64,000 bases of DNA, from sequence record PX393110.1; one strand, written 5' to 3'. This document shows, piece by piece, positions 2,385 through 63,620 of this stretch. The translations under genes were made by a program, and so were the position numbers. The DNA comes from a phage. The number at the start of each line of letters is the position of its first letter. Within the stretch, counting starts at the first letter, position 1. Below the pieces are notes generated by a model. It did no database searches, had not been told where the DNA came from, and saw only the letters and a list, made by a program, of their open reading frames with translations.

Positions 2385-5150
2385 CTACTCTTCCATAAAC
2401 GTAGTTACGTTATTGGAAAGGTAGGCACCGATTTTAGTATTATATCTCTGGAACGTAGGTACATGAGTAACCAGGATGATGTGATTAACCGGAATGTCCT
2501 GGAGAGCATCGATAGCTATGTCCAGAGTATTCACATCCAGATTCTTCAACGACTCATCCAGAATCAGGCATCCAGCACCTTTACTAAGGCTAATCAGCTT
2601 ACCGATGAACAGTACGTCCACCAGGTTCTGCTGACCACCAGAGAGATCAGAATACGGAATCAGGAACTCACCGACTTTGTATTGAACATCAAAGTCAATC
2701 TTGATATTTCCATTAGCCTGTTCACGAACGGTAGAGATGACCATATCACCACCAGTCATCATCGCAGCCACTTCCTTAAAGATAGAAGCAGTTACGTCAC
2801 CGCTATTAGTGAACAGATTCTGATACTCCACCAGCTTCTGATACTTAGGCTGAAGAGTAGCCAGCTCAGAGTTAGCCTTATCCAGCTTCGTCTGAGCATC
2901 GTCCATACGAGACTTAAGACTACGAAGAGTAGCCATAGCTCCGATAGTGGAGTTAATCTCGATAAGCTCTTGTTCCAGCTTAGCGACTTCCTCTTCCAGA
3001 ACTTGCACGGAGGAATAGGACTTAGTCTTATTCTTAAGCACTTCCACATCGCTATTGACGGTATGAATCTTCTGGCGAAGAGTGGCCACATCGTTTAGCA
3101 GACCGGACTTACGACGGAGTTCGACTAATTCGTTATTCTTAAGAGCCAGCTTCTGTCGGATTTCATCAGACTTAGGAGCCTTACTTATCTCAGCTTCCAC
3201 AGCATCCAACTTAGACACAGATACAGATCCCTGTGTCTCGAGCTCATCCATCTTACTTCTGATAGAGCTCTGTACCTGCTTAATGTCCTCTTCCTTAAGA
3301 GACTGTTTACAGGTAGGACAGGTAGTGGGAATATTCCGCATTTCTGTCTCTAACTTAGTCAACTCCTGTTCCAGACGAGTCAACTCCTTAGTTAGAGATT
3401 CGCTCTGGTTATGGAGCGAACGAATATTCCCTTCTACTTCCGACACTTCGGCATCTAGCAGAGTAATTTCGCCACGGACATTAGCGAGTGCGGAGTTAAC
3501 CTCTTCTTCGCTAAAGTCTATATTGAACGCAGCCAGCGAGTCTTCCAACATCTGAAGACTCTGTAGCTTACTATCCAAATTACCCAGCTCCCGGATCTTC
3601 TGACGAATATCATCAATCTGAGGAAGGATTCGGGATTTAGCCTCTTCCAGATCACTTACGTCCTTGAGTCTGGAGAAATCGTGATCCTCCATCGTCTTAA
3701 GGACTTCTTCCTGAGCAGTAACCTGAGTCTGGAGATTACCGATCTCTACCTTACAGTTCTTAGCCGAGGCCTTTGCGACAGCTTCGTACTGGTTAATTAC
3801 GGTAAGACCAAGCATCTTCGTTATCAGGTTGATACGCTCGTTGAATCCGAACTGGCTAAGGAACGGAGGACTGTTCTGGGAGCGGTACAGAAGATCGAAG
3901 TGTTCGAGGAATGGCAGCATCTCCCAGAGCTTAGCTTCACGCTCACGAATACTTCCGCCATCCATCTCATCGCCATCAATCCAGACTCGGAACGTCTGAC
4001 CACCAGCCCAATGGCGACTGATCAGGAATTCACGACCACCATACTCCAGCATCACTTCTACCAGAAGATGGTCCTGACCGAGTCTCACCACGTTACGAGG
4101 ACTGTCGCTACCAGTTAAGCAGTAGTTCAGAGCTCGTAACAGCGAGGATTTACCATTACCGGTTTCGCCGTAGAGATAAGTCAGACCTTTCTTAAAGTCC
4201 AGCTCCAACTTATCGATGCTACGGAAGTTCTCTACCTTAATGCTATTTAAGGTAAAGTTGAGGTCGAATACCGACTCGGAACGATCAACGTGGGTAGACA
4301 TCTCATCATGGATATCTTTAAGACCTTTAGCCCGAACGACTTTATCGATAACTTCTTCGACATCAATAGACTTAACCGAGATGCGTGAAGCATCCATCAT
4401 CTGAGCTCGTTCACGAACTACCAGATGTGGGTAATTGTCCAATCCGACAGGAACCTCATCTTCCCAGTACATCTTTAAGTACTTAAAGGAATCAGACTCT
4501 ACCGGAACCCGCTGCCAGGAAAGATCTTTGAGATCCAGCAGTACCAGACTGCCTTCCTGACTATCACCCATCCCATGAGGAATAGGCACGTTCACCGAGT
4601 GAGTATGACCGATGCTGATAGGACGGTGGATGTCACCCGCAAATCCCAGATCGTACTTAGTATCGTCGAACTCCTGACCGAACATCGAGGACAGGGTAAT
4701 ATGGCCGATTAGGACATCTACTTTATCCTGGATGAAGCTAAAGTCCTGAGTCGGACGCCAGTCGCTGAAGGCGACCTTACGGCCACCTAAGTTCAGGATC
4801 TTACCATCGACATACTCCGCCTTACCAGCCAGGATCGGCACCAGCGAGTTCTGATAGTGATCAGCATCTACCGATTTGGAGTTAATGTCGTGGTTACCCA
4901 GAATGTAGTAAATCTCGGAGAACTGCTCACCGAGGATGTCCATAAACTGGGAAGTAGCATGTGCAATCTTAGGCTCGTGCTGAGCCTTATGCACCAAGTC
5001 GCCAGCGATAGATAGGCAAGTAACTTTATGTTCCTTACCCATCTCCACCATACGATGAGCCAATCTGATAAACTGCTTTAGCCGAAACCCTTCCGAGTTA
5101 TGTTGCTGAAACTCATGAATATGAATATCAGCAGCAATTAACATTTTCAT
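2385..5150 (-). CDS. Fused Mre11/SbcD-like nuclease and Rad50/SbcC-like ATPase (single 921-aa polypeptide)
   Basis: N-terminal calcineurin-like phosphoesterase motifs (DIHIHE, GDLVH, GNHD, GDIHRP, GHTH); then Walker A GETGNGKSS, a long heptad-rich region with a CPTC zinc-hook, ABC signature LSGGQQ, Walker B CLILDE and H-loop VTHV. RBS GGAG before the ATG at 5150. Confidence 0.75.
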   Translation of the reverse strand: MKMLIAADIHIHEFQQHNSEGFRLKQFIRLAHRMVEMGKEHKVTCLSIAGDLVHKAQHEPKIAHATSQFMDILGEQFSEIYYILGNHDINSKSVDADHYQNSLVPILAGKAEYVDGKILNLGGRKVAFSDWRPTQDFSFIQDKVDVLIGHITLSSMFGQEFDDTKYDLGFAGDIHRPISIGHTHSVNVPIPHGMGDSQEGSLVLLDLKDLSWQRVPVESDSFKYLKMYWEDEVPVGLDNYPHLVVRERAQMMDASRISVKSIDVEEVIDKVVRAKGLKDIHDEMSTHVDRSESVFDLNFTLNSIKVENFRSIDKLELDFKKGLTYLYGETGNGKSSLLRALNYCLTGSDSPRNVVRLGQDHLLVEVMLEYGGREFLISRHWAGGQTFRVWIDGDEMDGGSIREREAKLWEMLPFLEHFDLLYRSQNSPPFLSQFGFNERINLITKMLGLTVINQYEAVAKASAKNCKVEIGNLQTQVTAQEEVLKTMEDHDFSRLKDVSDLEEAKSRILPQIDDIRQKIRELGNLDSKLQSLQMLEDSLAAFNIDFSEEEVNSALANVRGEITLLDAEVSEVEGNIRSLHNQSESLTKELTRLEQELTKLETEMRNIPTTCPTCKQSLKEEDIKQVQSSIRSKMDELETQGSVSVSKLDAVEAEISKAPKSDEIRQKLALKNNELVELRRKSGLLNDVATLRQKIHTVNSDVEVLKNKTKSYSSVQVLEEEVAKLEQELIEINSTIGAMATLRSLKSRMDDAQTKLDKANSELATLQPKYQKLVEYQNLFTNSGDVTASIFKEVAAMMTGGDMVISTVREQANGNIKIDFDVQYKVGEFLIPYSDLSGGQQNLVDVLFIGKLISLSKGAGCLILDESLKNLDVNTLDIAIDALQDIPVNHIILVTHVPTFQRYNTKIGAYLSNNVTTFMEE

Positions 5151-7154: not shown

Positions 7155-7187
7155 CCTTAACAGCCTTTCGACCCTCCAAAAGAGCGG
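7155..7187 (-). promoter_or_regulatory. Conserved promoter-like motif, copy 2
   Basis: CCTTAACAGCCTTTCGA...AAAAGAGCGG; intergenic, about 60 nt upstream of the ATG at 7095. Confidence 0.5.
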
Positions 7188-7191
7188 CGGA

Positions 7192-8232
7192 CTACACCTT
7201 ACGCAGTCGGTCTATCATTTTAGCCCGATGCTGCTCTTCTGTATTGATGATCGAGTACATACGAACCAATACTGACGGATCATTATCTACTCGGTTGGCT
7301 AACTTATCCAGAGCACCTAAGTAGATACTGGTCTCTTCCTTGATTACCTTACGAACTGAGTCAGCAAAGGTAAATCCAATACTGTCTGGGTTGAACGTAA
7401 TACCGTCCAGCATCACAGCCAGCATCACATTGTCCTGGAAGATGTCCGATTTAATAGAATCCAGTACACTATTCTTGCGGACTGTTTCCAATATCGAGAC
7501 GACCTTAGACACCTTCGGGAACCCTTTCCGGCCATTCAGTAGTTCCAGGAAGGTAAAGAATTTGCCTATGTCTTTGATAGATGTAAGCAGCAGGAATAGT
7601 TCAGGATGGTGCTCTGCCAGAATCGACAGGAACATCATCTTCTCTGTATTCGTCTTAGGAATCAGATCCTGTATCGCTTTAATATCTACGTCGGTCACGA
7701 TTGCTCCCATATGTTCGAGTATACGAGTCACGATGATCCTGTCTGTCAGATCAAGATGCTCGACCATAACCACTCCCCAGTCTAAATATAGCTGGATGAT
7801 AGGTTTGAATCGGTTAGGGAGGAACTGATTCCAAAGATTAACATAGCGATGGACAGCCACTTCCTGTCTAACGCTGTAACTATTGCCTAACTCCAGAGCC
7901 TTGTAAAAATCTGAGTTCTCGGCTAATTCGGGTTCTAGCATGTCGATCGATACTTGCTTTACTTCTTTCTTAATTATCGACTCGAGATGATCCCGTGTAA
8001 CTTCTTCTGTGGTAGTGAGCAGCATGTAGGTTAAGCTGGTCACTGCAGAAGATAATGCCTCTTCGGTCTGTCCTCTGAATTTATAATAGGTACACACCCG
8101 TCGGACTATGGCTAGTGATAAGGTGAATAGGGTACGAGAATCCCTCTTCACAGAATTGATCTCCCTATTCACCAATTCAACTAGCTTTTCGACGGTAGCG
8201 TTCTCGAGGATCTCTACCATCTCTTTTATCAT
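7192..8232 (-). CDS. hypothetical protein (346 aa), replication-module context
   Basis: ORF track; RBS GGAAGA; no diagnostic motif recognised. Confidence 0.5.
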   Translation of the reverse strand: MIKEMVEILENATVEKLVELVNREINSVKRDSRTLFTLSLAIVRRVCTYYKFRGQTEEALSSAVTSLTYMLLTTTEEVTRDHLESIIKKEVKQVSIDMLEPELAENSDFYKALELGNSYSVRQEVAVHRYVNLWNQFLPNRFKPIIQLYLDWGVVMVEHLDLTDRIIVTRILEHMGAIVTDVDIKAIQDLIPKTNTEKMMFLSILAEHHPELFLLLTSIKDIGKFFTFLELLNGRKGFPKVSKVVSILETVRKNSVLDSIKSDIFQDNVMLAVMLDGITFNPDSIGFTFADSVRKVIKEETSIYLGALDKLANRVDNDPSVLVRMYSIINTEEQHRAKMIDRLRKV

Positions 8233-8456
8233 TTAAATATCTTCCTCAGACCAGCATCCGGATCACCCTCATCCACGAAATCCTGCTTAATGCTAACTGC
8301 ATCGTTGATAGATATTTTGAACTCCTCGTCGGAAACACGAGTAATAGTTCCGTATTTACTCTCTATGGAGTTGCCTGGACTTATGGAACTCAGCACCATA
8401 AATACCATGGCTTCGTTGGGTAGGGTACCTACGATATCGGACAGCTTTACACTCAT
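8229..8456 (-). CDS. hypothetical protein (75 aa)
   Basis: ORF track; overlaps downstream gene by 4 nt; N-terminus MSVKLSDIVG resembles the N-terminus of the helicase at 11818. Confidence 0.4.
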   Translation of the reverse strand: MSVKLSDIVGTLPNEAMVFMVLSSISPGNSIESKYGTITRVSDEEFKISINDAVSIKQDFVDEGDPDAGLRKIFK

Positions 8457-8459
8457 ACA

Positions 8460-8909
8460 TTACCCCATACTTGATAAAGAGATAGACTTTTCGTCTAGTT
8501 CGCATACCTCCGTGATTAAAATCAGGTATTCGTAATTATCTTTATCATTGATTAGTTTATCCATATTCAAGGTGATCGTGAATCGATCATCTATGCTAAT
8601 AGCTTCCTTGACCGCATCTTCCACTGCTTTAATCAGGTTAGATACATCGCGAGTCCAGAATGATTGGCTGAACGAGAATATCATGCGGATATTCAACATC
8701 ACGGACTTACCTTTATATGGCAGAAATGCTTCTCTAGCTCCCTGCATATCTAAGGAGGATTTCACCCACTCCTTAAAGTCCTTGATGCTAGGGTCGAGAT
8801 AGACCCACGATCTTCCTCCACGAGCCCTCCCGACTTTATACATTTCGTTCACGGAGGGGAAATTCCCTCCGTATTGCAGAATGTAGTTATGAGTTCCTAA
8901 TACTTCCAT
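8460..8909 (-). CDS. Possible RusA-like Holliday junction resolvase
   Basis: 149 aa; NEMYK and RDVSNLIKAVEDAVKEA...IDDRF segments resemble RusA catalytic-region motifs, but the D-x-D is D-x-S here. Strong RBS GGAGGAA. Confidence 0.4.
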   Translation of the reverse strand: MEVLGTHNYILQYGGNFPSVNEMYKVGRARGGRSWVYLDPSIKDFKEWVKSSLDMQGAREAFLPYKGKSVMLNIRMIFSFSQSFWTRDVSNLIKAVEDAVKEAISIDDRFTITLNMDKLINDKDNYEYLILITEVCELDEKSISLSSMG

Positions 8910-10168
8910 TAGTTCCTCCGACCACCTCTGCCACCATAAGTCTGTAGGCGAGAATACACATCACGAGTAATCTGTTCGATTTCACCATGAGCTCTCATGA
9001 TCCAAGGTGAGCTAATTCCGTCCTTACCACGACGGCACTTAGCCACTTTAAGAATACCGCAGTGCTTCTCACTACGAGGACTCAGACCGACCGTAACCAT
9101 CATATCTACGTTCTGCTGCTTACGAGCAGATTCACCAGCAGAATCGATATTCAGTTCTTCCTCTCCCCAGTATTGAATCTTAGGCTGAGAGGCAACGAAC
9201 ACCAGGCGAGCAGGTTCGTAGATAGGTTTAGCTATGGAAGTCAGGATGTCATAGATATGACCACCATCGTCATACATACTTCCTGTTTCCGGACGCTTAA
9301 GGTTGGAGTCATAGTCCACTACCAGACAGTCGTAGCGCTTCTTACCTCGACAACTATCCAGGTATTCTTCCAGATCTTCAGCACCGAGACTACGAGAAGG
9401 CACTGTAATCAGGTCGATATAGTTCAGGATCTCACGAACGTCGTCGGTAAGGTGTTTATTCAGTTCGGCGACAACCTTAGCATAAGGAGTACCGGTGATC
9501 ACCGCCGTAGCACGAGATAAGAAGTCGTAGCGAGTTAAGTCGCCAAGAGCTACCCATAAAGTGCGACGACCCTGTGTAGCGAATCCGAGGACTTCCTGTA
9601 GCATGATAGCAGATTTACCACCACCAGGACGACCTACGAACTGAATTACCTGACCAGGAATATAGCCATTAAATACCGAGGCTTCAGTAACCACATCCAG
9701 AGTAGACTGGAATACGCCATCTAAGCCACCGATGTCATGTTCCATTACAGTATCTACATCCAGACCACCCAGAGTATGTACCGGAATAGTCGAAGTCAGA
9801 CTACGTGGAATATCACGAATCAGATCAATCAACATACCGGTATCTTCGGAGTTAGCTTTCATGATCTCTGTCAGTTTACGCTCCTGATAGAATCGGAAGA
9901 AGTTATTCACAATCTTCTCAATTTCTTTAGGATCGTTAACCAGACGGAAATTCTCGGCCAACTCAACAAAGTTAGATATGTCCTCTGCAGGACATACCTC
10001 ACCAAGTATCGAGTGAATTACAGCTGGGGTGGCATCCTGTAACTTAATACCGGACTCCACGAGGGTTCTTGCAATCTCAGTAGACCAGGGAAGATCATTA
10101 ATCGTGAGTCCCATAGACTCTTTGATCTTAGGGTTAAACAAACTTGCTACGTGTGTGATCTCTGACAT
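8909..10168 (-). CDS. DnaB-like replicative DNA helicase
   Basis: Walker A GRPGGGKSAIML, Walker B-like CLVVDYDSNL, RecA-fold C-terminal domain. Confidence 0.7.
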   Translation of the reverse strand: MSEITHVASLFNPKIKESMGLTINDLPWSTEIARTLVESGIKLQDATPAVIHSILGEVCPAEDISNFVELAENFRLVNDPKEIEKIVNNFFRFYQERKLTEIMKANSEDTGMLIDLIRDIPRSLTSTIPVHTLGGLDVDTVMEHDIGGLDGVFQSTLDVVTEASVFNGYIPGQVIQFVGRPGGGKSAIMLQEVLGFATQGRRTLWVALGDLTRYDFLSRATAVITGTPYAKVVAELNKHLTDDVREILNYIDLITVPSRSLGAEDLEEYLDSCRGKKRYDCLVVDYDSNLKRPETGSMYDDGGHIYDILTSIAKPIYEPARLVFVASQPKIQYWGEEELNIDSAGESARKQQNVDMMVTVGLSPRSEKHCGILKVAKCRRGKDGISSPWIMRAHGEIEQITRDVYSRLQTYGGRGGRRN

Positions 10169-12362: not shown

Positions 12363-12395
12363 TTTAACAGCCTTTCGACGCTAATTAAAGGTGGT
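12363..12395 (-). promoter_or_regulatory. Conserved promoter-like motif, copy 3 (upstream half degenerate)
   Basis: TTTAACAGCCTTTCGA conserved; the AAAAGAGCGG half is replaced by AAAGGTGG. Confidence 0.4.
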
Positions 12396-13352: not shown

Positions 13353-13383
13353 TTTAACAGCCTTTTAGGTCATTAAAACGGCG
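13353..13383 (-). promoter_or_regulatory. Conserved promoter-like motif, copy 4
   Basis: TTTAACAGCCTTTTAGG...AAAACGGCGG. Confidence 0.45.
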
Positions 13384-13392
13384 GAGTTCAGA

Positions 13393-14184
13393 TCAATACC
13401 GTGGGTCGGTATCCTGATAATCGCGAATCAAGTCATAGACGAGCACATCCAGACGAGTAGCATCTTCACGCTTCATGCGGGTAGGTCTGTACATATGAAT
13501 ACATACACAGTGCTTAGACCATACCTTAGCAGTCTGACGTTCCGTAAGTTCTTTACGGTCGACGATGTACTTCTCGAATGCGTGATAAGAGATAGGCTTT
13601 GATACTTCGATATATTGGCACATATCGAGGAATTGCGGGTAGTCGTCAGTCAGGTAACGACTGAATACATCCTGGTAATAGGAGTAGTTAGGGAACTTAC
13701 CACCATTTTCCAGAGATAAAGCATGAGTCTCTATCTCCTTCAGCATCAGAGACATGAATGCCTGATTATTGCTGGGGGAGGTCCACATGTTGATTTCGCA
13801 GTAGTCTAACCGAGGGGAATAAACGCGTACCTGAGTCTCGTGAGGAGTGTAGGTTTCGTGAGGGCTTCGGATAAAGAGTGTATCAGCATCAACATAGGAG
13901 TAACCACGAAGATCCATCATTACCTGAATCTTGAGTCGCAGGTAATCACATACAGAGGCCATCTTAGCCTTAGTCTTCAGGATATTATACGCTTTCTCCA
14001 TGATAGGATCTCTGGCGAATAAATCCTGGATCATAATGCATCGGCACCCTTCGATAATGTTTTCAGTATTATCGATCACCAGCACATGGTCCTTAGGTCC
14101 ATATTTCTGTAAGGATTTAATGCATTCCCGAACATGGATAGGCATCTTTGGTCCTACCCAAAGCTGGAAATAATTCTGACTCAT
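13393..14184 (-). CDS. Putative glycosyltransferase (GT32 / Gly_transf_sug-like)
   Basis: SVCDYLRLKIQVMMDLRGYSYVDADTLF matches the D-x-x-R-x-x-x-L...G-x-Y-x-D-x-D signature of GT32-type sugar transferases; RBS AGAGGTAA. Confidence 0.5.
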   Translation of the reverse strand: MSQNYFQLWVGPKMPIHVRECIKSLQKYGPKDHVLVIDNTENIIEGCRCIMIQDLFARDPIMEKAYNILKTKAKMASVCDYLRLKIQVMMDLRGYSYVDADTLFIRSPHETYTPHETQVRVYSPRLDYCEINMWTSPSNNQAFMSLMLKEIETHALSLENGGKFPNYSYYQDVFSRYLTDDYPQFLDMCQYIEVSKPISYHAFEKYIVDRKELTERQTAKVWSKHCVCIHMYRPTRMKREDATRLDVLVYDLIRDYQDTDPRY

Positions 14185-14817
14185 AGTTACCTCTATGTTA
14201 TTTATTTTAAACTGGATAGGGACCTAATAGAGTAAATTAGTAAATAAATACTTATTAGTTACCTCTTACCTATGCTAAGGGAAGCGTACTCGAGGAGTAC
14301 AGAGGCTTAGCGAAAGAGCGGAGTAACACCTTTATCCCAATTAGTCAAAGTAGAGAGCGAAGGAGTCGCGCCCGCTTGAGGCGGCGCGACCTCCGCTTCA
14401 CCAATCCTACCGGATGAGCGCCTGCGACCACCCGAGCCTACCCCTGCATCACTCTCTAAAGCCACTTCGGGCTTTACCTCGTTCTGCTACGCGATACGCA
14501 GGCGATAGCTACACTAAGTCCCCTGGAGATGGCTAGTAAGCATCCGCTACCAGTCATATCCAACCTAACATTGGCGAAGCCAGGGACTAGGCACTCCGCG
14601 CCAATAAGCTACATTAGGATTTATGTCCGTATTCGAAGATAGGCCGATCGGTGAGACTATGCATTCATCTCTGCTCAACCAGGAAGCGCCGATTAGGGTA
14701 AATACCCAAACTACCTTCTTAATGTCACTCCTCCCAGACCGCTTCGGGACTTAGCTTAAGTCATATCCGAATAATCTGGCATCTACGACGGACCGTAGTG
14801 TATGGAGCGTACTGCAA

Positions 14818-14849
14818 TTTAACAGCCTTTCGATTCATCAAAAGAGCGT
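14818..14849 (-). promoter_or_regulatory. Conserved promoter-like motif, copy 5
   Basis: TTTAACAGCCTTTCGATTCATCAAAAGAGCG; faces about 600 nt of ORF-free sequence before the glycosyltransferase gene. Confidence 0.5.
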
Positions 14850-14978: not shown

Positions 14979-15054
14979 TGGTGGCCCATACTGGTTTCGA
15001 ACCAGTGACCAATCGATTATGAGTCGACTGCTCTCACCACTGAGCTAATGGGCC
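14979..15054 (-). tRNA. tRNA-Met (anticodon CAT; elongator-type, or Ile2 if lysidinylated), CCA encoded
   Basis: Hand-folded cloverleaf: acceptor GGCCCAT/ATGGGCC, D-stem GCTC/GAGC, anticodon stem GTCGA/TCGAT, loop CTCATAA, T-stem ACTGG/CCAGT, T-loop TTCGAAA, 3' ACCA; 76 nt. Confidence 0.85.
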
Positions 15055-15199: not shown

Positions 15200-15276
15200 T
15201 GGTACTCCCTACAGGATTCGAACCTGTGACCAATAGCTTAGAAGGCTACTGCTCTATCCAGCTGAGCTAAGGGAGC
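15200..15276 (-). tRNA. tRNA-Arg (anticodon TCT), CCA encoded
   Basis: Hand-folded cloverleaf: acceptor GCTCCCT/AGGGAGT (G1-U72), D-stem GCTC/GAGC, anticodon stem GTAGC/GCTAT, loop CTTCTAA, T-stem ACAGG/CCTGT, T-loop TTCGAAT; 77 nt. Confidence 0.85.
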
Positions 15277-15457
15277 TTATTAATTCTTCTACCTGCTTAA
15301 CAGATTTATTCATGCCTGTTCCGTGACACTCCCCGCAGACCCAAGTCCGACAGAAGATATCACCAGGCTCAGCATCGTCACACTCTCCTAAACCTCCACA
15401 TTCTGGACATTTAGCTTCATTAACAATACTTCTTAGCTTATGAAAAGTAGTTTCCAT
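15254..15457 (-). CDS. Small zinc-ribbon protein (CPEC...CGEC)
   Basis: 67 aa with two CxxC pairs; RBS GGAGGA before the ATG at 15457; the 3' end overlaps the tRNA-Arg 5' end by 23 nt. Confidence 0.45.
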   Translation of the reverse strand: METTFHKLRSIVNEAKCPECGGLGECDDAEPGDIFCRTWVCGECHGTGMNKSVKQVEELISSLSSAG

Positions 15458-16049: not shown

Positions 16050-16080
16050 TTTAACAGCCTTTCGAGTCATCAAAAGAGTG
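16050..16080 (-). promoter_or_regulatory. Conserved promoter-like motif, copy 6
   Basis: TTTAACAGCCTTTCGAGTCATCAAAAGAGTG; no ORF of 60 aa or more within about 290 nt downstream. Confidence 0.5.
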
Positions 16081-16231: not shown

Positions 16232-16263
16232 TTTAACAGCCTTTCGACCGTACAAAAGAGCGG
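16232..16263 (-). promoter_or_regulatory. Conserved promoter-like motif, copy 7
   Basis: TTTAACAGCCTTTCGACCGTACAAAAGAGCGG; tandem with copy 8, 58 bp apart. Confidence 0.5.
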
Positions 16264-16268
16264 CGTAA

Positions 16269-16811
16269 TTAGACGCTCGCCTCAGACACTTTAACAGCCT
16301 TTGGAACTGTAAAAAGAGCGGGTTTATACCATTCGGGAGTGCGGTAGAAAGTAATGGTACGACCCTCTTTCTCCCAGATATAGTATTTATCGTTCAGGTA
16401 GTTACGATACTTCTCGTAAACTGTTTCGCCAGGAGCACCTGCCACACACGCATAAGGTGTCATGTCAGTCTCCGGACCGACCTTCAAGTTCTTAGGCAGT
16501 TTGCTGAGTCGCGACAGAATAATATCTGTGGCATGCATACGACCGGTACGTTCATAGAACAGGATACACAGATAGTTAGCCAGCTCTTTAACGAAGTTGT
16601 AGTTACCGGAAGATTCACGGACCCAGCGTGCTGATGGGTGATTTACGTGAGTCTGTTTGTAAATACCCTCGATAGCTTGATCGCCATCCAGAACATGATG
16701 AGCTGTGGACAACAGCTGAGCACATTCGATAATCATTTTATTCTGGTGCATTGGCATACAATGGTCCATAGCACATTCTAACGCATCTTCGTGAGTACGG
16801 AAAATATTCAC
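16269..16811 (-). CDS. hypothetical protein (180 aa; GTG start)
   Basis: ORF track; AGGAG 8 nt upstream of the GTG at 16811. Confidence 0.5.
   Translation of the reverse strand: MNIFRTHEDALECAMDHCMPMHQNKMIIECAQLLSTAHHVLDGDQAIEGIYKQTHVNHPSARWVRESSGNYNFVKELANYLCILFYERTGRMHATDIILSRLSKLPKNLKVGPETDMTPYACVAGAPGETVYEKYRNYLNDKYYIWEKEGRTITFYRTPEWYKPALFTVPKAVKVSEASV
16290..16321 (-). promoter_or_regulatory. Conserved promoter-like motif, copy 8 (overlaps the 3' end of the upstream CDS)
   Basis: TTTAACAGCCTTTGGAACTGTAAAAAGAGCGG; the last codons of the 16269-16811 ORF read through it. Confidence 0.45.
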
Positions 16812-16896: not shown

Positions 16897-16928
16897 TTTA
16901 ACAGCCTTTCGACGGTACAAAAGAGCGG
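16897..16928 (-). promoter_or_regulatory. Conserved promoter-like motif, copy 9, followed by a 5' hairpin GGAGGTGGTTACCTCC
   Basis: TTTAACAGCCTTTCGACGGTACAAAAGAGCGG; the hairpin at 16876-16891 would sit at the predicted 5' end of the transcript. Confidence 0.5.
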
Positions 16929-17093: not shown

Positions 17094-17429
17094 TCATAAG
17101 AACATTTTGACAAGATGTTTAGTACCGTTGATAGCAGCTTTCTTAGCAGCCGACTTAACATGAGCTTTAACTTTCTTATGTAAAGTCTTGGACTTAGCCT
17201 TATTTTTAAGGAGTCGTCCGGCAGCTTTAGCCCTACGCTTGATTCTGTTAGCTGATTCGGAAATAGCAATACCTTCCTCATCAGTAACATCATCAACATT
17301 AGACGAAGCTATCATCAGTAACTGATCATCGGTTAAACCAGCTGCTATGGTTTTGACGAATATTCCTTCATCGACATCACCAACAGCATTAAGGAGATCC
17401 TGTGATTTTGACATAATCTTCCCATACAT
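17094..17429 (-). CDS. hypothetical protein (111 aa, lysine-rich C-terminus)
   Basis: ORF track; AAGGAAG 7 nt upstream of the ATG at 17429. Confidence 0.45.
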   Translation of the reverse strand: MYGKIMSKSQDLLNAVGDVDEGIFVKTIAAGLTDDQLLMIASSNVDDVTDEEGIAISESANRIKRRAKAAGRLLKNKAKSKTLHKKVKAHVKSAAKKAAINGTKHLVKMFL

Positions 17430-17883
17430 TAATTACTTCCTTACCCAGAGATTTAGCATGGGTTACACAGTTACCTGTACCACCCTTGCTGCCATCCCAT
17501 AAGGCTAATCCCTTCTGACTACGGTTAACCATGTAACGGTTACGCACCATCATCTTGAAAGAATCATACCCAGGCTCGGAAACTATAATTGTGCGACGAC
17601 TTCTCCTGCAGAGCTCAGTCCATTTTTCTACATCTGCAGATCGCCACATCTTGGGCTGGTCAATCATAGGGACTGCTGCGAAATATGGTATTCCGAGGTT
17701 AGCACATGCTTGAGCACATGCCATGTCCCATCCTAAAGCCATACCCACGAACCAGCAGTCGACCTTATTTTCTTCGGTCAACCTCTGGATATGATGTTCG
17801 GCAAACTGGGTAAGCTGATCATGGCTAAAGATATCCCAGCCACCCAGTTTATCTGGCCTATGACCAGTGACGAACATAAACAT
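17389..17883 (-). CDS. Possible SLOG/YpsA-like Rossmann-fold protein
   Basis: 164 aa; TGHRP near the N-terminus and WDGSKGGTGN near the C-terminus, recalled as typical of YpsA/DUF1273-type SLOG domains; assignment from memory only. Confidence 0.3.
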   Translation of the reverse strand: MFMFVTGHRPDKLGGWDIFSHDQLTQFAEHHIQRLTEENKVDCWFVGMALGWDMACAQACANLGIPYFAAVPMIDQPKMWRSADVEKWTELCRRSRRTIIVSEPGYDSFKMMVRNRYMVNRSQKGLALWDGSKGGTGNCVTHAKSLGKEVINVWEDYVKITGSP

Positions 17884-18224
17884 TACTTCTTCTCTATCTT
17901 GGCCTGCTTAGCCTTAACTAAAGCCAATGCGTTAGCCAGTTTAGCAGAAGTATCCTGCGGACCATCTTCTTCGAGCTGTTTCTTCAGGGACTCCATACGA
18001 TCGGTAGTCCCTTTAGTATCCATCTCGATTAATTCGTTGATGGTCGACCCGCCGACGTTAGGTAACTTGCCGAGTTGCGACAAATCCTTAACTTCGGGGA
18101 TCTTAACGTGAAGTTGAATAGACTGGGATGCTCTCGCGAATGACCCAGCACGACGATTGTCTCCTACCTTATTATATAGGGAAGATAGGTTACCCAGGAA
18201 CGTAATGATATCAGCAGTTTTCAT
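17883..18224 (-). CDS. hypothetical protein with a helix-hairpin-helix-like motif (start refined)
   Basis: Track start at 18239 is a TTG; the ATG at 18224 has GGAGGA 6 nt upstream; LGKLPNVGGSTINELIE is HhH-like. Confidence 0.45.
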   Translation of the reverse strand: MKTADIITFLGNLSSLYNKVGDNRRAGSFARASQSIQLHVKIPEVKDLSQLGKLPNVGGSTINELIEMDTKGTTDRMESLKKQLEEDGPQDTSAKLANALALVKAKQAKIEKK

Positions 18225-18242
18225 ATTTGATTCCTCCAACGG

Positions 18243-18274
18243 TTTAACAGCCTTTGGACCTTACAAAAGAGCGG
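18243..18274 (-). promoter_or_regulatory. Conserved promoter-like motif, copy 10 (at the strand-switch region)
   Basis: TTTAACAGCCTTTGGACCTTACAAAAGAGCGG, about 20 nt upstream of the ATG at 18224. Confidence 0.5.
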
Positions 18275-60513: not shown

Positions 60514-61137
60514 TTAGAAACGATCGCGACCTATGATTGGTGCGACTGGTTTAAAGTCAGTCTGGTCGTAACCTTTGTAAAGGTCGTAGCCACCACCAGC
60601 AACCTCAGTAAAGTAAATCTGACCGATGCGCATGTTAGAACGCAGTCGGATAGTGTTAGGGCTTAGGTTAACAATCTCTAGAGTAAATGCTCCCTTGAAT
60701 CCAAAGTCCCCGAAACCTGCACTGACATGGCTCAGTATTCCCAGACGACCCATAGTGCTGCGACCGTCGTAATGCTGACAGAATGCCACACCACGGTCTA
60801 CAGTGCTGTTACGGTATCGTGGGTCATAATGCTCGAACCACTTCTCAGGCAACATGGTAGTACAGTCGATACGTTCAGATGCTGAGCCTAAGATGAACTC
60901 CCCAGGTTTAAGATCGTAGTATAGTGCCTCTACCTCGCGATACTCCGGAAGAGTACATGGTTTATAGGGATCTACTACATGGCCATCAGGCATCTTTTGA
61001 GGAACCAGGAAGAACGGAGCTAAGCGTACATCTACACTATTCTGTCCGATTCGTGGTTCCTGATTGTCCAGATAACTGTGATAGGTCCATAATCCTTGAG
61101 TAATTGCCTGCTCAATATAAGATTTACCAAGGATCAT
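60514..61137 (-). CDS. dcd: dCTP deaminase family protein
   Basis: VDVRLAP and GRSTMGRLGILSHVSAGFGDFGFKGAFTLEIVNLS align with the dCTP deaminase/dUTPase-fold signature. Confidence 0.65.
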   Translation of the reverse strand: MILGKSYIEQAITQGLWTYHSYLDNQEPRIGQNSVDVRLAPFFLVPQKMPDGHVVDPYKPCTLPEYREVEALYYDLKPGEFILGSASERIDCTTMLPEKWFEHYDPRYRNSTVDRGVAFCQHYDGRSTMGRLGILSHVSAGFGDFGFKGAFTLEIVNLSPNTIRLRSNMRIGQIYFTEVAGGGYDLYKGYDQTDFKPVAPIIGRDRF

Positions 61138-61422: not shown

Positions 61423-61893
61423 TTACTTAATCCCGGAATGGCCAAACCCACCGTCGCCACGTTCAGAAACATCAGAGAATTTATCCACAAGCTGGAGCTC
61501 TGGATGGATAACGGGAAGAAACACCATTTGAGCGATACGGTCGCCGTGGTTAATAACGAAAGATTCGTTACTACGGTTCCACACAGACACCATCAGTTCT
61601 CCTTGATAGCCGGAGTCGATAAGACCAACCAAGTTACCCAGTACGATGCCATTTTTATGGCCGAGGCCGCTGCGGGGAAGAATCACAGAAGCGATGTTCG
61701 GATCGCCGATGTTGATCGCTAGACCGGTAGGGACCAGGATAGTTTCGCCAGGATTTACAGCGATTTTATCGATTTCGTCAGTCTTAATCATCGCACGAAG
61801 ATCAAGACCAGCATCACCAGCTTTAGCGTATTTCGGTAACTCCAGAGAGTCGTCCCAGTTAATAGTTTTCTTTACTTGAACTACGGTCATCAT
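61423..61893 (-). CDS. dut: dUTPase (deoxyuridine 5'-triphosphate nucleotidohydrolase)
   Basis: Canonical motifs [30 protein letters not shown] and C-terminal [10 protein letters not shown]. Confidence 0.9.
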
Positions 61894-62514: not shown

Positions 62515-62546
62515 TTTAACAGCCTTTGGAGGCTACGAAAGAGCGG
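62515..62546 (-). promoter_or_regulatory. Conserved promoter-like motif, copy 11
   Basis: TTTAACAGCCTTTGGAGGCTACGAAAGAGCGG; its -10-like element lies about 25 nt upstream of the ATG at 62494. Confidence 0.5.
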
Positions 62547-63588: not shown

Positions 63589-63620
63589 ATTTAACAGCCT
63601 TTCGAGGGTAAGAAACGGCG
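63589..63620 (-). promoter_or_regulatory. Conserved promoter-like motif, copy 12
   Basis: TTTAACAGCCTTTCGAGGGTAAGAAACGGCGG, about 30 nt upstream of the ATG at 63559. Confidence 0.5.

Follow-up and report, generated by a model that had tools for sequence, protein, structure and literature searches.

A toxin-like GT-A glycosyltransferase in a phage replication arm and its proposed role in thymidine DNA hypermodification

The window analysed here is a 64,000-nucleotide stretch of the phage sequence record PX393110.1, whose early/replication arm carries on the minus strand a gene for a 263-residue protein. We call it GT32L (GT32-like), a label coined here for the protein and its family. We propose that GT32L takes part in the hypermodification of thymidine in its phage group, as one of several glycosyltransferases of that pathway, and that its family is confined to phages; we estimate the probability that it acts in hypermodification of thymidine in phage DNA at roughly 55%. 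The initial annotation considered the choice between DNA, a protein and a host glycan as the target to be undecidable from sequence. Comparative genomics now favours DNA over the other two, although short of proof, because most homologues with enough surrounding contig lie in or beside clusters for hypermodification of 5-hydroxymethyldeoxyuridine (5-hmdU). A role in the pathway is likewise suggested because relatives embed the gene operonically with a JGT-like GT-A glycosyltransferase, a possible GT-B enzyme, a deacetylase and a 5-hmdU kinase, and because thymidine modified with more than one sugar has been documented in the wider group of phages.

The open reading frame (ORF) had been called correctly, on the minus strand with an ATG start. 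The window DNA is approximately 87-92% identical to only two isolates, Escherichia phages vB_EcoM_IME392 (IME392) and EP_H11, in which the GT32L orthologues are 96% and 94% identical, respectively. Across these three phages the ratio of nonsynonymous to synonymous substitution rates (dN/dS) is 0.05-0.06 at dS of 0.2-0.5, and because of this low ratio the sequences argue that the gene is real, functional and under constraint.

Taken alone, the window protein yields nothing significant in Pfam, NCBIfam, PHROGs or the PDB (phmmer), its sole Pfam match being Caps_synth at 12.2 bits (E=0.12). The hidden Markov model search against PF04488 that was suggested to verify the GT32-like call formally failed: the window protein has no match in Pfam to this family, and the relatives P0002, P0003, P0004 and P0007 score 14.3, 14.3, 21.4 and 19.1 bits, below the curated gathering threshold of 23 bits. 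Weak matches to models of the GT32 clan do recur across the family, however, with PF04488 in these four, Gb3_synth in P0005 and Caps_synth in the window protein, and they speak for the glycosyltransferase assignment. Phmmer over 1.84 billion cluster representatives recovered only four distant relatives with 21-29% identity, and profile and word-indexed searches added two more members only, P0006 and P0007. The family comprises at most about eight distinct sequences among roughly 15 billion proteins. Scans of IMG/VR with the alignment and four single queries gave no additional member, and tblastn on isolated phages with four family members as queries returned only IME392 and EP_H11; matches to Staphylococcus baseplate sequences are noise (E about 0.5). 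P0008 and P0009 were rejected as members, with E values of about 0.02-0.05 and locations in bacterial polysaccharide loci. The single IMG/VR match, a 496-residue protein (L008), has a generic GT32/Caps_synth-like N-terminal domain and scores 20 bits against the family profile; we rejected its reading as a fusion of GT32L with a JGT-like enzyme because the profile of the JGT-like family described below (hyp344) does not match it.

While single-sequence phmmer finds nothing, the family profile matches the glucosyltransferase domain of Legionella SetA (E=0.0013-0.0022, 21 bits), with the F-x-x-W-V-G, D-x-x-R and Y-x-D-x-D motifs in register. A single-sequence AlphaFold model was useless, with a predicted local distance difference test score (pLDDT) of 35, and a usable model needed the 8-sequence alignment; the resulting AlphaFold 2 (AF2) model has a pLDDT of 82.6 and a predicted template modelling score (pTM) of 0.82. 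Foldseek returned 129 PDB matches at E<=1e-3, headed by YeGT, PaToxG, LtpM, SetA, glycogenin (GT8) and Lgt1, with E values of the top matches from 4e-8 to 1e-5. Compared with the viral structure library, the model matches first the IME392 orthologue and next glycosyltransferases of giant viruses and proteins of Caudovirales, the latter annotated as 'Glycosyltransferase, DXD sugar-binding motif'. The predicted fold resembles a solved GT32 enzyme of the GT-A type, and is nearer to the type of the large clostridial toxins (LCT), SetA and YeGT than to the GT32 enzyme Och1; the AF2 model contains the catalytic core of the LCT/SetA/YeGT fold and its W, D-x-x-R and Y-x-D-x-D residues. We thus predict with high confidence that GT32L is a soluble DXD-type GT-A nucleotide-sugar glycosyltransferase of the retaining kind (LCT/GT32/GT8). 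Retaining, alpha-glycosyl transfer would be expected from the fold neighbours of the model, all of which are retaining enzymes. The initial annotation was to be abandoned if a model lacked a nucleotide-sugar-binding fold, and this objection falls away since the predicted fold is that of a DXD GT-A nucleotide-sugar transferase. Its term GT32-like is thus fair for the glycosyltransferase fold and for how the enzyme should work, whereas membership of GT32/PF04488 is not demonstrated.

The peptide in which a D-x-x-R-x-x-x-L...G-x-Y-x-D-x-D signature had been read, DYLRLKIQVMMDLRGYSYVDADTLF, corresponds to GT32L residues 80-104. Its D-x-x-R and Y-x-D-x-D elements are present and invariant across the eight family members, and therefore do not represent a chance motif; however, the register was off, with Gln rather than Leu at position 87 and the second element running G94-x-x-Y97-x-D99-x-D101. 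The family thus carries the GT32-type D-x-x-R...Y-x-D-x-D motif for sugar-nucleotide and metal binding. The 16 family-invariant positions are W9, P15, H17, V18, C21, D80, R83, D99, D101, L103, P108, Y200, H230, P234, R239 and D246, and Y97 is kept in 7 of 8 members. From the alignment, W9 appears to correspond to the uracil-stacking Trp of LCT/SetA-type enzymes, and H230 is a likely candidate for the third metal ligand; the region around H230 in P0005 matches the C-terminal region of Pfam Gb3_synth (E=0.003).

All six metagenomic homologues lie on phage contigs among replication genes, and most of them among DNA-modification genes. A 5-hmdU DNA kinase gene (HMUDK) is found within 10 kb of the homologue in 4 of the 6 (contigs L002, L004, L012 and L014). 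GT32L directly follows gyrB and topoIV in L002, L004, L009 and L014, the L009 contig being too short to display more than the gyrase genes. In L002, L004 and L014, GT32L is followed by a protein of approximately 340 residues, a phosphatidylserine decarboxylase (PSD)-like protein, an ATP-grasp protein, a PIG-L deacetylase, a second 340-residue paralogue, a 359-residue protein, the 5-hmdU DNA kinase (Pfam HMUDK_hel) and an AAA_28 kinase. The stop and start codons in this series often overlap, and L002 extends to a thymidylate-synthase homologue and an HD phosphohydrolase. In L012, GT32L overlaps the HMUDK stop codon by 4 nt, and a GATase, the amino acid:DNA transferase ADDT, a GT-B-like protein and a second hmdU kinase (HMUD2) lie downstream. 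In L010, it overlaps genes for a short-chain dehydrogenase (SDR) and a ThyX-like protein, and a GT-B gene adjoins topoIV. Genes for synthesis or activation of hydroxymethylpyrimidines therefore neighbour members of the family, at a distance of 12.5 kb or more for the window gene.

The 340-residue family, which shows no Pfam match and only a weak profile match to GT2 structures, has invariant R14, D106-D107-D108 and G187-E188-D189-x-Y191 (alignment A4). An R...DDD...ED[YF] signature has been reported for phage JGT-like GT-A DNA glycosyltransferases (bioRxiv 10.1101/2023.12.21.572611), and the shared R...DDD...GED-x-Y pattern suggests that this family, hyp344, is JGT-like GT-A. Each cluster holds one or two copies (EP_H11, listed as L005, 10261-11295; L014 4446-5468; L002 4231-5256; L004 5418-6422), and in the metagenomic relatives one directly follows GT32L.

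EP_H11 itself contains such a cluster at 3-16 kb, composed of gyrB, topoIV, an S-adenosylmethionine (SAM) methyltransferase, a 302-residue protein, a BCCT transporter, PIG-L, hyp344, a 359-residue protein (hyp359), HMUDK, AAA_28, a thymidylate-synthase homologue and an HD protein, beyond which lie a primase, a helicase and a 1095-residue PolA. The EP_H11 kinase scores 121.8 bits with HMUDK_hel (L005 12422-13393), and no ADDT or aGPT-Pplase match was found among the cluster proteins tested. A preprint lists an aGPT-Pplase gene for EP_H11, with the associated kinase not detected (10.1101/2025.03.26.645540), so that its annotation and our Pfam search disagree. The hypermodification cluster starts with gyrB and topoIV both in EP_H11 and in the metagenomic relatives. 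The left edge of the window cuts gyrB, whose orientation and gene order are those of EP_H11, so that the cluster should begin approximately 1.6 kb past this edge. The site that holds GT32L, the JGT-like, PSD and ATP-grasp genes in L014 is occupied by the methyltransferase in EP_H11. The full-length BCCT betaine/choline/carnitine transporter (Pfam 307 bits; EP_H11 8174-9556, L014 8557-9939) stands inside the cluster and, in EP_H11, adjoins the SAM methyltransferase gene; a membrane transporter is unusual in a DNA-modification cluster, and it may import a modification precursor.

EP_H11 and IME392 have been placed in an 'RP13-like'/SP-15-like group on the basis of a PolA fused to a uracil-DNA glycosylase (UDG) and genes for synthesis of 5-hmdU monophosphate (5-hmdUMP), and the group is predicted to be thymidine-hypermodified (Sieskind et al. 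2025, PMC12686479; bioRxiv 10.1101/2025.03.26.645540). According to the same sources, modified thymidines of SP-15, YerA41 and Carin-5 carry a linker, a phosphate and several sugars, and Carin-5 has a glycosyltransferase block and an N-acetylglucosamine (GlcNAc)-type deacetylase beside its polymerase. Neither source mentions the GT32L glycosyltransferase. Neither glycosyltransferases nor PIG-L are mentioned in the work of Lee et al. on hypermodified thymidine (PMC5889632, PMC8989533), a full-text literature search for glycosyltransferases together with 5-hmdU DNA kinase gave no match, and a BME3 paper citing IME392 proved unrelated. In the literature searched we found no description of a retaining LCT/GT32-like GT-A enzyme tied to 5-hmdU kinase clusters.

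For the donor, the DNA acceptor and the order of the steps, we infer the following scheme. The dCTP deaminase, the dUTPase and the thymidylate-synthase homologue would provide 5-hmdUMP, which would replace T during replication; the dCTP deaminase-like gene of the window, whose EP_H11 orthologue WBU87719.1 is listed as a dCTP deaminase (PMC12686479), would supply dUTP/dUMP for this synthesis. After replication, 5-hmdU would be decorated by the 5-hmdU DNA kinase, the JGT-like GT-A enzyme, the possible GT-B enzyme, the PIG-L deacetylase and the methyltransferase. GT32L would bind a uridine diphosphate (UDP)-sugar, most likely UDP-hexose or UDP-N-acetylhexosamine (UDP-HexNAc), through W9, D80/R83 and an Mn2+-coordinating D99-x-D101, in an Mn2+/DXD-dependent manner with H230 as the likely third metal ligand, and would add the sugar with retention, probably in alpha linkage. 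The most plausible acceptor is a sugar already placed on 5-hmdU by the JGT-like enzyme, in which case GT32L would extend the chain; alternatively, it might alpha-glycosylate the 5-hmdU hydroxymethyl group directly or act on the phosphate installed by the kinase. The resulting glycan would shield the phage DNA from host nucleases.

Several observations weigh against a role in DNA hypermodification. All of the nearest solved structures belong to enzymes whose acceptors are proteins rather than DNA. GT32L is near neutral (pI 6.7) and has no obvious DNA-binding bias; as an indicator of DNA binding, however, the isoelectric point is uninformative here, with all cluster proteins, the DNA kinase included, acidic or neutral. 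By tblastn, homologues were detected neither in YerA41 and SP-15 nor in isolated phages other than IME392 and EP_H11. Four of the metagenomic contexts come from one phage lineage, and are therefore not independent observations; the independent arrangements number about three or four. In the window the gene is set apart, 12.5 kb upstream of gyrB and in the same direction, as it is in IME392 and EP_H11, and the cluster of this genome lies outside the window, its presence being expected from relatives 87-92% identical. The window GT32L is only 20-29% identical to the in-cluster copies, whereas the backbone genes are 60-89% identical to those of L014 (gyrB 76% in amino acids, BCCT 89%); it therefore did not arise by mere relocation of an orthologue, and may differ in specificity.

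The first of these points also explains why the main rival remains a toxin- or effector-like glycosyltransferase that modifies Ser, Thr or Tyr of a phage protein or of a host protein, for example a translation factor or defence protein, so that the cell is taken over or disarmed as TcdB, Lgt1, SetA and YeGT do in eukaryotic cells. The top structural neighbours (LtpM, YeGT, TcdA/B, SetA and Lgt1) are all protein-modifying, GT32L is of minimal size like YeGT and PaToxG, and the window copy follows the tRNAs of the early/replication arm on its own, at a distance from the modification cluster. However, only about 180-190 residues align, GT32L having none of the additional helical and target-binding subdomains of the toxins, and the six metagenomic contexts are replication/DNA-modification operons in which the gene mostly overlaps or abuts modification genes. 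We therefore consider a protein target unlikely, if the strongest of the alternatives.

A different chemistry within the same DNA pathway seems less likely still. GT32L might act on the phosphate placed by the 5-hmdU kinase, or transfer a sugar-1-phosphate in the manner of Stealth/GlcNAc-1-phosphotransferases, yielding a phosphodiester-linked sugar as reported in SP-15, YerA41 and Carin-5. The structural matches to phosphotransferases, however, score below those to classical retaining glycosyltransferases, the motifs that are conserved belong to sugar transferases of the LCT/GT32 type, and Pfam gives no Stealth family match. An acceptor that is neither DNA nor protein, for instance a host envelope glycan or lipopolysaccharide precursor or a small molecule, is improbable, as are virion proteins: GT32L has no transmembrane or hydrophobic segment that could serve as a membrane anchor, the phage appears lytic, and structural or lysis genes never adjoin GT32L in any context examined. 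That GT32L is a decayed, non-functional remnant of a moved cluster gene, as its displacement and strong divergence from the in-cluster copies might hint, is barely credible given the dN/dS of about 0.05 at dS of 0.2-0.5, the retention of all 16 invariant residues and the intact ribosome-binding site (RBS).

Two structural classes of DNA glycosyltransferases are known, the GT-B type of T4 alpha- and beta-GT and the inverting JGT-like GT-A type. GT32L shows no homology to a proven DNA glycosyltransferase of either kind. Tentatively, and at slightly less than even odds, GT32L could be the founder of a third class, a retaining LCT/GT32-like GT-A enzyme; on that reading, which we hold no more firmly, an alpha-linked sugar would be transferred onto 5-hmdU, onto its glycan or possibly onto the kinase-installed phosphate. 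Like T4 alpha-/beta-GT and the JGT-like GT-A enzymes of 5mYOX/ThyS clusters, GT32L is proposed to transfer a sugar after replication to a base derived from a hydroxymethylpyrimidine, and it clusters with thymidylate-synthase homologues and further glycosyltransferases (10.1101/2023.12.21.572611). It differs from them in its structural class, in its association with 5-hmdU kinase clusters and in lacking the R...DDD...ED[YF] motif, which the neighbouring hyp344 family has.

Compared with the LCT and effector enzymes (TcdA/TcdB of GT44, Lgt1 of GT88, SetA, LtpM and YeGT/PaToxG), to which its identity is only 11-15%, GT32L is devoid of accessory helical or targeting domains, is encoded by a phage and would be cytoplasmic in a bacterium, and is accompanied by DNA-modification genes rather than secretion substrates; its acceptor is probably not a protein. 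Relative to GT32/PF04488 and Gb3_synth enzymes such as Och1 and A4GALT, family scores are all below threshold, GT32L has no membrane anchor, and its predicted structure is nearer to LCT-type enzymes. GT8 enzymes (glycogenin, LgtC) give no sequence-level match and differ in the N-terminal motif. As in SP-15, YerA41 and Carin-5, the EP_H11 group has several glycosyltransferases and a GlcNAc-type deacetylase encoded close to its replication genes, and EP_H11 and IME392 are grouped with these phages by PolA and the 5-hmdUMP synthesis genes (PMC12686479), whereas a GT32L homologue was not detected in those three. The 5-hmdU DNA kinase of the EP_H11 group suggests use of the hmdU-kinase route that Lee et al. 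described (PMC5889632, PMC8989533).

The placement of GT32L in the replication arm holds: the minus strand around it also encodes an Mre11-Rad50 fusion, a FEN-type 5'-3' exonuclease, gyrB and two helicases (Table 1). The EP_H11 record begins inside the Mre11-Rad50 gene, of which only a 695-residue part is annotated there. The tRNA block next to the gene amounts to only two tRNAs, which lie 0.8-1.1 kb upstream on the same strand. The window contains 12 copies of a promoter-like motif, AAAGGCTGTTAAA, where 0.07 would be expected; all are on the minus strand, and they are confined to the two early/replication arms. The motif forms the core of a ~50-nt (51-nt) intergenic repeat family, CGCTCTTTTGTACCGTCGAAAGGCTGTTAAAGTG..GGAGG, ending at the RBS of the next gene, and probably serves as a promoter for an RNA polymerase of the phage itself, or else as a processing site. 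EP_H11 encodes multisubunit RNA polymerase beta' fragments (L005 26582-28096 and 29676-31244; Rpb1 domains 3-5; 111-kb phage group), which fit with a phage-specific motif of this kind. A scan for sigma-70 promoters and terminators remained at chance level. Bounded by two copies of the motif, GT32L appears to be the sole protein-coding gene of its own putative unit. The 625-nt leader of this unit is approximately 87% identical to IME392 and EP_H11 in a continuous alignment, that is, conserved like coding DNA; as for structured RNA, Rfam gave no match and the fold z-score is -1.2.

Other small genes of the early arm were noted. A 180-residue phrog_624 'DNA binding protein' (16269-16811, minus) lies about 2 kb upstream of GT32L, and L010 has a homologue (34% identical; 7696-8220) equally far upstream of its own GT32-like gene; this homologue exceeds the Pfam threshold of Pyr_excise (T4 endonuclease V-type DNA glycosylase). 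A 164-residue YpsA/SLOG-family protein (17389-17883, minus; Pfam 29.5 bits, with a weaker DprA-like match) is encoded beside a 118-residue helix-hairpin-helix protein (17883-18239). A 67-residue ORF (15254-15457, minus), in which a DnaJ-type CXXCXGXG zinc-finger motif is recognised (E=0.0017), shares about 23 nt with the 5' end of tRNA-Arg, which makes its stop region or the ORF call doubtful.

Table 1. Features of the window that concern GT32L and its surroundings (all on the minus strand).
Feature	Position	Strand	Remarks
GT32L gene	13393..14184	-	263 aa, ATG start; ORF, AF2 model, fold matches, dN/dS
Shine-Dalgarno AGAGG	14190..14194	-	5 nt before GT32L ATG, read from sequence
W9 codon	14158..14160	-	N-terminal F-Q-L-W-V-G motif; family-invariant; aligned to SetA 'IHFIWVG'
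D80-Y-L-R83 codons (D-x-x-R)	13936..13947	-	D80 and R83 invariant; aligned to SetA 'SDMLRL'
Y97-V-D99-A-D101 codons	13882..13896	-	putative DXD metal/diphosphate site; D99 and D101 invariant; aligned to SetA 'YLDSD'
H230 codon	13495..13497	-	in H-[LM]-[YW]-[RK]-P motif; H230 and P234 invariant
Promoter-like motif AAAGGCTGTTAAA, nearest copy upstream of GT32L	14818..14830	-	634 nt before ATG
Promoter-like motif AAAGGCTGTTAAA, copy directly past GT32L stop codon	13353..13365	-	start of next putative transcription unit
AAAGGCTGTTAAA copies 1-6	1711-1723, 7156-7168, 12363-12375, 13353-13365, 14818-14830, 16050-16062	-	
AAAGGCTGTTAAA copies 7-12	16232-16244, 16290-16302, 16897-16909, 18243-18255, 62515-62527, 63590-63602	-	
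ORF-poor 625-nt leader between AAAGGCTGTTAAA and GT32L ATG	14185..14808	-	no credible ORF
tRNA-Met (CAT)	14979-15054	-	upstream of GT32L
tRNA-Arg (TCT)	15200-15276	-	upstream of GT32L
gyrB, N-terminal 558 aa	2..1675	-	Pfam HATPase_c, DNA_gyraseB, Toprim; left edge of window
Mre11-type metallophosphoesterase and Rad50/SbcC ATPase with zinc hook, one 921-aa ORF	2385-5150	-	
dCTP deaminase-like gene	60514..61137	-	Pfam DCD 84.7 bits
dUTPase	61423..61893	-	Pfam dUTPase 121.9 bits

Phages with hypermodified DNA withstand restriction enzymes as well as certain CRISPR and other nuclease defences, and their DNA is harder to sequence; such modifications have also been a source of new enzymes that act on DNA. 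The GT32L family is an extreme sequence orphan, and the EP_H11/IME392 group, with E. coli as its host, is much more tractable than SP-15, YerA41 or Carin-5. If our proposal is true, GT32L would be a defined target for knockout and biochemistry in working out the thymidine glycan of the group, and would show nucleic-acid chemistry to have taken up toxin-like retaining glycosyltransferases; an action of GT32L on DNA would give the DNA-glycosylation toolbox a new enzyme class.

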